A stretch of DNA of 64,000 nucleotides. Source: Gracilinanus agilis (Eukaryota). Below the pieces are notes generated by a model. That model worked only from the letters and a program-made list of their open reading frames with translations, was not told the origin of the DNA and did no database searches. Both the position numbers and the translations under genes were made by a program. Location: NCBI RefSeq assembly GCF_016433145.1, contig NC_058135.1:214883847-214947846 (forward strand), given 5' to 3'. Below, piece after piece: positions 6,398 to 60,240 of this stretch. The first letter of the stretch is position 1. The number at the start of each line of letters is the position of its first letter.

Positions 6398-6485
6398 TTT
6401 AAAACCCTTACTTCCTACTTGGAGTCAATACTGTGTATTGGCTTCAAGGCAGAAGAGTGTTAAGGGCAAGGCAATGGGGGTTAAG
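6398..6485 (-). mobile_element. 3' half of a SINE1_Mdo-type SINE, inverted relative to 6520-6720
   Basis: The reverse complement aligns at about 90% (by eye) to 6630-6717. Confidence 0.88.
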
Positions 6486-6519: not shown

Positions 6520-6720
6520 GGGGGCAGCTAGGTGGATCAGTGGATTGAGAACTAGACTTAGAGACAGGAGGTCCTAGATTTAAATCTGGCTTCAGCCACT
6601 CCCTAGCTGTGTGACTCTGGGCAAGTCACTTGACCCCCATTGCCTACCCTTACCACTCTTCTGCCTTGAAGCCAGTACACAGTATTGACTCCAAGATGGA
6701 AGGTAAGGGTTTAAAAAAAT
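6520..6720 (+). mobile_element. SINE1_Mdo/WSINE-type tRNA-derived CORE-SINE, full length
   Basis: GGGGCAGCTAGGTGG head, CTGGGCAAGTCACTT core and GAAGGTAAGGGTTTAAAAAA tail. Confidence 0.92.
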
Positions 6721-17952: not shown

Positions 17953-18146
17953 TTACAGCTTTAATATATGATCTGTGGTCCTCTAGTTGATATTTTACAG
18001 ATTAGCCAAATGACATACAGTGGTTGAGTGATTTATCCTAAATCACAGAGAATGTTAGATAAAATAGGAAGGTCTAGAACTTGGGTGTTATGGCTCCTGG
18101 TCCAGTTTAGCATCTAAACTCGTATCCAGCTCCTGGCTTCCCTGTA

Positions 18147-18410
18147 TATAAATGGAGATTTTGAACCTTGGACTTCATCCCCCATATGTCCCTTCGTGGT
18201 TGCCAAAAATGTAAAGGAGGAAATTGGGAAAGATTATGAGTGGATTGGATATTTAAGAGTTTTAGTGTGGTTACCAAGGAATTGAATAAATATCAATTCC
18301 TAATAAAAGAGACCCAAGTCAGGATGACTTTTATGGTAGTTTATTTACAATTAGGAAGGTTGAAGGTAGGGAAAATGAGAAAGAGGCACTCTAGCTTGGA
18401 CTGGAGGCCC
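18147..18410 (-). mobile_element. ERV fragment (R-U5, PBS, short leader), left arm of the palindrome
   Basis: The minus strand reads CT-rich R, AATAAA (18345-18340), U5 ending ...CCTTTACA at 18210, then TTTT and TGGCAACCACGAAGGGAC (18205-18188). This is the canonical LTR-end + PBS arrangement. Confidence 0.8.
18188..18205 (-). promoter_or_regulatory. Retroviral primer-binding site, tRNA-Arg type
   Basis: The plus strand reads GTCCCTTCGTGGTTGCCA. This matches the 3' end of vertebrate tRNA-Arg(UCG) isodecoders (...ATCCCTTCGTGGTTG-CCA, recalled) at 17 of 18 nt and lies 4 nt beyond an LTR CA end. Confidence 0.75.
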
Positions 18411-18420
18411 AAAGCAGGTA

Positions 18421-18685
18421 GGGCTTCCAAGGCCCCAACAGAGTTTCTCTCTCTCATTTTCCCTACCTTCAACCTTCCTAAATGTAAATAAACTACCATA
18501 AAAGTCATCCTGTCTTGGGTCTCTTTTATTAGAAATTGATATTTATTCAATTCCTTGGTGACCACACTAAAACTCTTAAATATCCAATCCACTCATAATC
18601 TTTCCCAATTTCCCCCTTTAATTTTTTGGCGAACATGAAGGGACTTATGGGGGATGAAGTTCAAAGTTCAAAATCTCCATTTATA
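18421..18685 (+). mobile_element. ERV fragment (R-U5, PBS, short leader), right arm of the palindrome
   Basis: AATAAA at 18487-18492, decayed U5 end ...CCTTTAAT at 18622, and PBS-like TGGCGAACATGAAGGGAC at 18627-18644. Confidence 0.75.
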
Positions 18686-18694
18686 AACCTGCAT

Positions 18695-18955
18695 GCTTTC
18701 GAGTCCCAATTGAAACCCCACTTTCTGCAGGAAACCTTTCCCAATCCCTCTTAATTCTCATGTCTTCTCTCTGTTAATTACTTCCAGTTTATTCTTTACA
18801 TCATTTATATATAACTGTTTGCACATTGTCTCCCCCATTAGACTCCCTATTCCTTGAGCACAGAAGTTGGCTTTTATCTTTCTTTTTTATTCCCAGTACT
18901 TAGAATAATGCCCAGTGCCTAGTCAGTACTTAATAAATATGCATTGAATGACCAA
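18695..18955 (+). mobile_element. L2 3' end
   Basis: GGAAACCTTTCCCAATCCCTCTTAATT...TTGTCTCCCCCATTAGACT...GTACTTAATAAATATGCATTGAATGA. Confidence 0.8.
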
Positions 18956-33485: not shown

Positions 33486-34093
33486 TTTTTTTAATTCAGA
33501 ATATTTTTCCATGGTTACATGATTCATGACCCCACACACACACACTCTCTCCTCCCCCCTCCCAAACCCTACAAGCAGTTCCACTGGGTTATACATGTAT
33601 CATTGTTCAAAGCCTATTTCCATGTTATTCATATTTGCAGTAGAGCAATGTTTTAACATCAGAACCCTAATCACATCCCTATCACACTACGTGGTCTATC
33701 ATATATTTTTCTAATACATTTCTGGTTTCACAGTTCTTTCTGTGGATGTAGATAGCGTTTTTTCTCCTCAGTTCCTCTGGATTGTCCTGGGTCATTGCAT
33801 TGCTGCTAGTAGAAAAGTCTATTATATTAAATTGTGCCATACTGTATCAGTCTCTGTGTACAATGTTCTTCTGGTTCTTCTCCTTTCACTCTGCATCAAT
33901 TCCTGGAGGTCTTTCCAGTTCACATGGAATTCCCCCAGTTCATTATTCCTTCCAGCACAATAGTATTCCATCACCGACAGATACCACAATTTATTCAACC
34001 ATTCCCCAATCTATGGACTACCCCTCATTTTCCAATTTTTTGCCACCACAAAGAGCACGGCTATAAATATTTTTGAACAAGTCTTTTTCCTTA
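33486..34093 (-). mobile_element. 5'-truncated L1 (L1_Mdo-type 3' end)
   Basis: Same 3' UTR as 46850-47547 and 59546-60240. Decayed possible TSD CAGAACCTAGTATTTT / CAGAATTTAGTCTTTT. Confidence 0.9.
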
Positions 34094-46849: not shown

Positions 46850-47547
46850 TTTTTAATTTTAAAATTTTTATTTAAATAATTAATTTAGAACATCTTGCCA
46901 TGGCTATAAAATTCATGTTCTATCCCTCTCCTACCTCTCCCCCCTTCCATAGTCAATGCACAATTCCACTGTGTCATTGTGTGTCATTGATCAAGATATA
47001 TATTCCACATTATTGATATTTGCGCTAGGGTGCTCATTTTGAGTCAGTATCCCTAATTATATCCCCAACCACCATTGTGATGAGGCAGTTGTTTTTCTTC
47101 TGTGTTTCAACTCCCACAGTTCTTCCTCTGAATGTTGATAGCATTTTTTCTCATAGGTCCCTCATAGTTATCCTGGATCATTGCATTGTTGCCAGTAGAG
47201 AAGTCCATTACATTCTATTTTACCACAGTGTATCAGTCTCTGTGTAAAATGTTCTTCTGGTTCTGCTCCTTTCACTCTGCATCAATTCCTAGAAGTTGTT
47301 CCAGTTCACATGGAATTCCTCTAGTTCATTATTCCTTTGAGCACAATAGTATTTTATCACCAACAGATACCACAATTTTTTCAGTCATTCCCCAACCTAT
47401 GGACACCCCTTCATTTTCCATTTTTTTTGCCACCACAAAGAGCACAGCTATAAATATTTTTGTACAAGTCTTTTTCCTTATGATGTCTTTGGGGTATAAA
47501 CCCAGCAGTGGTATGGCTGGATCAAAGGGCGGGCAGTCTTTTTAGCA
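46850..47547 (-). mobile_element. 5'-truncated L1 with TSD
   Basis: T-rich tail and L1 3' UTR. 15-bp TSD CTTCAGAACCCACTT at 46835-46849 and 47548-47562. Confidence 0.93.
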
Positions 47548-59545: not shown

Positions 59546-60240
59546 AATGCCTGCCCTTTGATTCAACCATACCACTGCTGGGTTTGTATCCCAAAGAGAT
59601 AATAAGGAAAAAGACTTGTACAAAAATATTTATAGCCGCGCTCTTTGTGGTGGCAAAAAAAATGGAAAATGAAGGGGTGTCCGTAGGTTGGGGAACGACT
59701 GAACAAATTGTGGTATCTAGTGGTGAAGGAATACTATTGTGCTAAAAGGAATAATGAACTGGAGGAATTCCACGTGAACTGGAGCGGCCTCCAGGAATTG
59801 ATGCAGAGTGAAAGGAGCAGAGCCAGAAGAACATTGTACACAGAGACTGATACATTATGGTTCAACTGAACGTAAAGGACTTCTCTACTAGAAGCAATGC
59901 AATAATCCAGGACAATTCTGAGGGACTTATGAGAAAGAAAGCTATTCACATAGAGAGAAAGAACTGTGTAAGTTCTTTCATAGAAACACAGAAGAAAAAT
60001 ATCTGCTTGATCAATGGTTCCATGGAGATATATTTGGGGATGTAGATTCTAAACAATCACCCTAATGAAAATATCAATAATATGGAAATAGGCTTTGTAT
60101 AATAATACATGCATAATTCAGTGGAATTGCTCTTTGGCTCCAGGAACAGGGAAGCATGAGGGGAGAGAAAAAAAAACATGAATCATATAACCATGGAAAA
60201 ATATTCTAATTTAATTAATTAAATAAATAAATTTAAAAAA
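59546..60240 (+). mobile_element. 5'-truncated L1 (ORF2 C-terminus + 3' UTR + A-rich tail)
   Basis: Translates PFDSTIPLLGLYPKEIIRKKTCTKIFIAALFVVAKK, then a frameshift, then ...NKLWY...YYCAKRNNELEEFHVNW...LQELMQSERSR. Confidence 0.93.

Follow-up and report, generated by a model that had tools for sequence, protein, structure and literature searches.

A 543-bp palindrome in the genome of Gracilinanus agilis (positions 18145-18687 of the window, by which we mean the whole 64,000-nucleotide stretch analysed) is probably an aberrant reverse-transcription product of tRNA-Arg-primed, gammaretrovirus-like ERVs that integrated into the germline as one unit. Its parts follow the order U3(1-50), inverted PBS, inverted R-U5, R-U5, PBS and inverted U3(1-50), bracketed by a 4-bp duplication (Table 1). 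The initial annotation treated the palindrome as a one-off locus, whereas we found the same PBS-to-inverted-U3 junction in 32 distinct elements of this genome.

Structure of the palindrome

The arms at 18147-18385 and 18447-18685 pair without gaps at 225 of 239 positions, leaving 14 differences, and the next-best register pairs 95. The counts in the initial annotation (239 bp, 14 mismatches, no gaps) were therefore exact. An inverted-repeat search of the window returned 18144-18392 and 18440-18688 at 93% identity, the sole long, closely spaced, high-identity pair among the 25 longest inverted repeats. The palindrome annotated at 18147-18685 thus stands, but the true extent of the element is 2 bp greater on each side. 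RNA folding predicts one hairpin of -422.5 kcal/mol (z = -41 against 20 shuffles) that closes on a loop of 10 nt, as the initial annotation had described; the capacity it had proposed for a duplex of more than 200 bp is likewise borne out by this in silico fold. Each arm carries an AATAAA in the outward sense.

Table 1. Features of the palindromic element and its insertion site, in window coordinates.
Feature	Position	Strand	Basis or remark
Left target-site duplication, CCTG	18141..18144	+	sequence
First ~50 nt of U3, ~270-bp LTR family, integrase-type end	18145..18194	+	94-100% against U3 starts of ordinary copies
18-nt tRNA-Arg PBS	18188..18205	-	tRNA-Arg match
Long arm, last 234 nt (R-U5) of ~700-bp LTR family	18210..18443	-	includes 47-nt spacer; AATAAA at 18345 (-)
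Fold-back junction, 5-nt microhomology	18439..18443	+	common to LTR positions -234 and -184
Short arm, last 184 nt (R-U5) of same ~700-bp LTR	18439..18622	+	AATAAA at 18487 (+); variants private to the two arms
Second 18-nt tRNA-Arg PBS	18627..18644	+	arm pairing; junction search
Second copy of U3 5' end, outward-pointing	18638..18687	-	arm pairing; junction comparison
Right target-site duplication, CCTG	18688..18691	+	sequence
Old dispersed repeat hosting the insertion	18688..18950	+	upstream part stops at 18144; of 40 scored copies, 39 lie elsewhere in the genome (70-78% identity)

The initial reading of the inner arms as head-to-head R-U5 copies of an ERV LTR proved correct: they are the last 234 and 184 nt of a ~700-bp LTR, and these are the only parts of that LTR inside the element. 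Because the arms meet at a microhomology between LTR positions -234 and -184, the 47-nt spacer is part of the left arm. A genome-wide search that allowed up to 3 mismatches found the fold junction at this one place and nowhere else. Two variants are common to both arms and absent from 8 other copies of the family, from which it follows that a single molecule was the source of both arms. The tRNA-Arg PBS proposed for each arm was also confirmed, its 18 nt matching the 3' end of tRNA-Arg (TCG and CCG genes called by ARAGORN in the animal's own genome).

The outer sequence was revised. What had been described as ~41 nt of leader, with no U3 attached, is instead the start (~50 nt) of the U3 of another LTR family (~270 bp), in inverted orientation. 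The switch from PBS to U3 runs through a 7-nt microhomology (18188-18194 on the left, common to the PBS and to U3 positions 44-50) and ends at the 18th PBS base. Since the outer ~50 nt are an inverted U3 start on each side, the element ends in two U3-type integrase ends. The left terminal TG now reads TA, and TG...CA is present at neither terminus of the window element today; most sister elements have the terminal CA. We also considered the leader reading at other LTR-PBS junctions and rejected it, as 0 of 12 continue with that sequence.

The duplication CCTG/CCTG directly flanks 18145-18687 within an old repeat that we take to be an L2-type 3' end. Flank collinearity was assessed against 14 copies of this repeat and gave an overlap of exactly 4 in two, of 3 in one and of 8 in one, the other ten being uninformative. 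The arms of the element differ by 6.2% (15/241), and other pairs that were born identical differ by 3.9-11.1%; a mismatch excess in the outer arms was not significant (p = 0.21). Assuming neutral change at 1-3 x 10^-9 per site per year, arms that differ by 6% would be roughly 10-30 million years old. The target-site duplication of MLV is 4 bp (PMC3790719).

A class of PBS-to-inverted-U3 elements

Searching the genome for the PBS joined to inverted U3 (≤3 mismatches) gave 38 matches and 0 in a reversed-pattern control. Removal of 4 plain U3 starts, 1 duplicate locus and the second count of the window element left the 32 elements. Whole ~270-bp LTRs followed by PBS and inverted U3 make up 26 of them, two with a damaged end, and in two more (L040 and L114) the LTR has a different U3. 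L038 is a complex form with two LTRs. The remaining three are fold-backs, namely L042 and L118, in which one side is a U5 end, and the window element, which alone among the 32 has PBS-U3 at both ends. Most junction elements measure 299-343 bp and have ~62-bp inverted ends and short target-site duplications.

Both ends could be located in 30 elements, which excludes L041 and L108 (one end not located). Within this set an exact 4-bp duplication was present in 17 of 30, compared with 1.1% of 870 cross-locus pairs, and a duplication within one mismatch in 25 of 30, compared with 7.5% of those pairs; the duplication of L038 becomes exact when the true end of that element is taken. Ends of the same element resemble each other more than they resemble ends elsewhere, with 3.24 differences in 43 nt versus 3.95 between elements (p = 5e-5), and they share 10 minor variants versus 2.3 in shuffles (p = 0.0002).

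We placed 24 short forms and 32 ordinary LTRs on one tree, leaving out the non-standard elements; L121 (a duplicate of L113) and L165 and L166 (tandem repeats of L164) were also dropped from the analysis. On this poorly resolved tree, short and ordinary labels change 17 times against a shuffled mean of 18.3, and a single clade of short forms is rejected (p-AU 0.0002). This scatter among ordinary LTRs and the rejection of a single clade show that the short forms arose repeatedly and not as one transposing family. The U3 motif of the ~270-bp family has 2148 genomic matches, so junction elements number ~1.5 per 100 acceptor U3s (32 versus 2148, a rough figure given that the two patterns differ).

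Individual loci showed further peculiarities. L038:897-1821 holds two inverted LTRs flanked by GTAG/GTAG, and its inverted U3 tail continues through a PPT-like tract, from which it follows that the acceptor was longer than plus-strand strong-stop DNA. L144:8432-9575 (the same locus as L103) is two-U3-ended, contains a full ~700-bp LTR of the window element's own family and is flanked by TTAC/TTAC; it starts with the LTR and continues with a PBS that extends along the tRNA, ~90 nt of further sequence and its own inverted U3 1-308. At L113 the 4 flanking bases are reverse complements of each other, with no direct repeat.

Parent LTR families and the anti-PBS

A search of the animal's own genome (3.70 Gb, with seven contigs of chromosome scale) with the arms, in which 40 of 3692 candidates were scored, returned dispersed single-arm matches; given this sampling, other palindromes of the ~700-bp LTR could be missed. 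The best copies of the inner arms are LTRs of ~700 bp that have TG...CA ends, and many of them are flanked by 4-bp duplications. In 32 copies of the ~270-bp family without PBS, a set that includes 3' LTRs and mis-set ends, the 4-bp duplication is exact in 9 and within one mismatch in 20. A purine-rich, PPT-like tract lies just before the U3 start in 3' LTRs of this family, which identifies the outer sequence of the palindrome as a U3 terminus. Among 40 examined loci of the 151 matches listed for Gag_p30 (PF02093), the ~270-bp LTR stands upstream in 3 and the ~700-bp LTR beside Gag in 0. The first 12 nt are nearly the same in both families.

The ~270-bp family carries an anti-PBS. The best local match falls at U3 44-63/64 in 31 of 32 ordinary copies, with a median score of 12 against a shuffled mean of 6.2 (99th percentile 9); scores in the ~700-bp family are 6-8. 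The stretch U3 44-63 is conserved and resembles the 3' terminus of the primer tRNA, with 17 of 21 positions identical in the copy at L049:1542-1561. It could pair with the PBS in genomic RNA and thereby join the two RNA ends.

Coding capacity beside six LTR-PBS junctions was limited to L1-type domains at one locus (39 selected frames). A ~4-kb two-LTR element at L142:264-4322 has a tRNA-Arg PBS and LTRs that are 4-5% apart; a Pfam scan of four of its frames gave no match, and it is probably non-autonomous. Three ~270-bp LTR copies lie ~3 kb apart at L079 and L164-L166, two with the same flanks, and probably represent a tandem duplication. Three clustered tRNA-Arg genes (TCG, TCG, CCT) were found at L125:1041-2072. 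At 7 of 7 distinct loci (L096, L100, L103, L123, L126, L127 and L129, with L124 the same place as L096), complementarity to tRNA-Arg runs 39 nt past the LTR end to tRNA position 38, halting before G37. In some families, as shared leaders show, this 39-nt complementarity has been inherited. It may be a trace of synthesis that read through m1A58 as far as a modified G37.

A proposed reverse-transcription route

We propose that minus-strand strong-stop DNA folded back at the 5-nt microhomology near the start of R and primed itself, and that the extension would have copied R-U5, followed by 18 nt of the tRNA that had primed it. The resulting PBS 3' end would have annealed to the anti-PBS in U3 on a genome of the second family packaged in the same particle, and synthesis from there would have run off the U3 terminus. 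Second-strand synthesis, a second tRNA copy and a second jump would then have given two U3 ends, both of which integrase would have joined to germline DNA. Because the window element's own LTR family lacks the anti-PBS, its origin requires two such jumps and the presence of two families in one particle. The short forms probably arose when the PBS end of plus-strand strong-stop DNA (U3-R-U5-PBS) annealed to the anti-PBS in U3, on the same molecule or on a co-packaged one. Run-off at the U3 terminus, followed by the second strand, would leave linear DNA with two U3 ends. The insertion in the window is most likely dead and decaying neutrally.

The switch point lies at the end of the 18-nt PBS, where plus-strand synthesis stops on the primer tRNA; in PMC8599865 this stop is reported to come once 18 nt of tRNA have been copied, ahead of m1A58. 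PMC6894440 reviews template switching between co-packaged genomes. The fold-backs L042 and L118 have a native U5 end and exact target-site duplications, which points to formation before integration. L042 fits the model well: its long arm lies on the U5 side, and its end falls 27-31 nt downstream of TATATA in four copies, those of six aligned that carry the segment. The fold of the window element lies 21-26 nt after a weak TATA-like AT run (judged by eye), a shorter distance than in L042 and a marginal fit. L118 departs from the model, as its longer arm is on the opposite side and its fold is far from the TATA. Equilibrium DNA folding was mostly negative and gives self-priming little support: the predicted fold paired the 3' end at the junction in 1 of 8 LTR copies truncated at -234, and in 1 of 24 short elements it paired the PBS end with U3 40-50. 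The sequences folded were decayed, and the prediction ignores nucleocapsid.

Alternative origins

The main rival, which we consider unlikely, is a host replication template switch after insertion. An LTR-PBS-inverted-U3 element would have come first, and an inverted copy of its right end, seeded by the ~12-nt similarity of the U3 ends, would later have replaced the left ~520 bp, returning at the 5-nt microhomology. Such a sequence of events would yield the identical final structure and keep the target-site duplication. It draws support from the nearly common start of the two LTR families, from L040 and L114 as known cases of a foreign LTR with a U3 tail, and from L103/L144 as a two-U3-ended element with a full 700-bp LTR. 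It leaves L042 and L118 unexplained, as these fold-backs end in U5 and have clean duplications. It also expects younger arms, and the observed 6.2% sits inside the range of comparable pairs; moreover, its first step still requires the same reverse-transcription error as our preferred route.

The size of most junction elements, together with their inverted ends and short duplications, would also suit a MITE-like family of non-autonomous DNA transposons with 62-bp terminal inverted repeats, of which the window element would be a palindromic derivative. We regard this as scarcely credible, since the inverted ends resolve into U3 plus a tRNA-templated PBS, the duplications are variable 4-mers as in solo LTRs, the inner LTRs come from different families and the tree test already disfavours a common founder. 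Palindromes are a known assembly hazard, and on that count alone an artefact might be suspected, but this explanation, like that of two separate LTR insertions meeting head to head, is just as implausible in view of the 14 differences in 239 sites between the arms, the single duplication bracketing the whole unit within an older repeat, the private variants common to both arms and the 31 sister elements at other loci.

Silencing potential

The initial annotation proposed that read-through of the locus makes a trans-acting silencer, a role for which the sequence offers no support, as there is no internal promoter, the G-U-compatible mismatches are 4 versus 4 and arm divergence is ordinary. Whatever the origin of the palindrome, we judge it very improbable that the locus is read through into a hairpin and becomes a source of siRNAs or edited dsRNA directed at tRNA-Arg-primed ERVs. 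In favour of such a source is the very stable predicted hairpin, which spans R-U5, PBS and a U3 start common to many copies. Against it, the element is without the TATA-like region of the LTR and contains AATAAA three times per strand. The even split of G-U-compatible mismatches between strands (small numbers, low power) and the arm divergence, which is as in other pairs (again with low power), also weigh against this use. No host gene was recognised in the window in 69 of 110 frames plus 22 further candidates, a survey in which short exons can be missed, and a Pfam scan gave one weak sub-threshold match in each set (69 and 22). The window contained no CpG-rich stretch and 0 Rfam matches.

A broader version would have retroviruses seed their own silencers, with the U3 anti-PBS rescuing strong-stop DNAs, providing them with two integrase ends and planting germline hairpins against R-U5 and the tRNA-Arg PBS, and with the 543-bp copy being read through and diced; we think this highly unlikely as well. 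Since the proposed route makes long TE-matching hairpins in one step, it is nonetheless a testable source of inverted-repeat loci, even if the window copy is silent.

Relation to known systems

The fold-back resembles self-primed HIV-1 strong-stop DNA, whose 3' end folds back and is extended by reverse transcriptase into an inverted R-U5 duplication. [quoted passage not shown] The elements described here differ from that product in their extra U3 ends and in being germline-fixed with integrase-type duplications. They resemble plus-strand strong-stop DNA and second strand transfer (PMC8599865, PMC6088434) in having U3-R-U5 plus exactly 18 tRNA-templated nt and a 3' end that anneals to its complement. 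The acceptor here, however, is a PBS-complementary U3 stretch and not the minus-strand PBS, and the outcome is a ~320-bp two-U3 element and not a provirus. Auto-integration inversion circles of LTR retrotransposons share the character of aberrant in-particle cDNA with inverted segments, but those are circles in which integrase attacks its own DNA (PMC7197481), whereas we see microhomology switches at the PBS end and chromosomal insertions.

Among integrated repeats, ERV1 or gammaretrovirus-like solo LTRs are similar in being LTR-sized, mostly with TG...CA ends, and flanked by 4-bp duplications. Solo LTRs arise by post-integration recombination, without a PBS or an inverted U3 tail; our elements have both, and in the window one complete U3-R-U5 between the duplications is absent. 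MITEs and palindromic DNA-transposon derivatives are likewise short, non-coding and hairpin-forming, with terminal inverted repeats, but our elements have no common founder and take their ends from LTR and tRNA. The likeness to inverted-repeat endo-siRNA loci would lie in a possible duplex of more than 200 bp that matches a repeat family.

The resemblance to MITEs means that repeat annotation could misfile these elements, and a repeat-library entry (Dfam, Repbase) for them may exist. Our literature search, conducted in listings and the beginnings of abstracts with subscription papers mostly outside its range, found no description of such insertions. Within that range the reactions themselves are known, and germline-fixed products were not found described as a recurrent class. 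Strong-stop DNAs that primed themselves or were mis-transferred are known from the test tube as dead ends, and in this genome ~30 of them appear to be present as germline insertions. If our reading holds, they form an in vivo record of the reverse transcriptase stop on the tRNA and of families sharing a particle, and two U3 ends would suffice for integration. The search can be repeated in any genome by looking for a PBS and then the reverse complement of the LTR start.

Other inverted repeats in the window

Fragments of dispersed repeats, presumably L1-like, lie in opposite orientation at 33553-34093, 47098-47535 and 59548-60152, where they are 74-97% complementary and 12-26 kb apart. A shorter inverted pair, 82 nt long and 83% complementary, occupies 6398-6479 and 6634-6715, with 154 nt between its arms.
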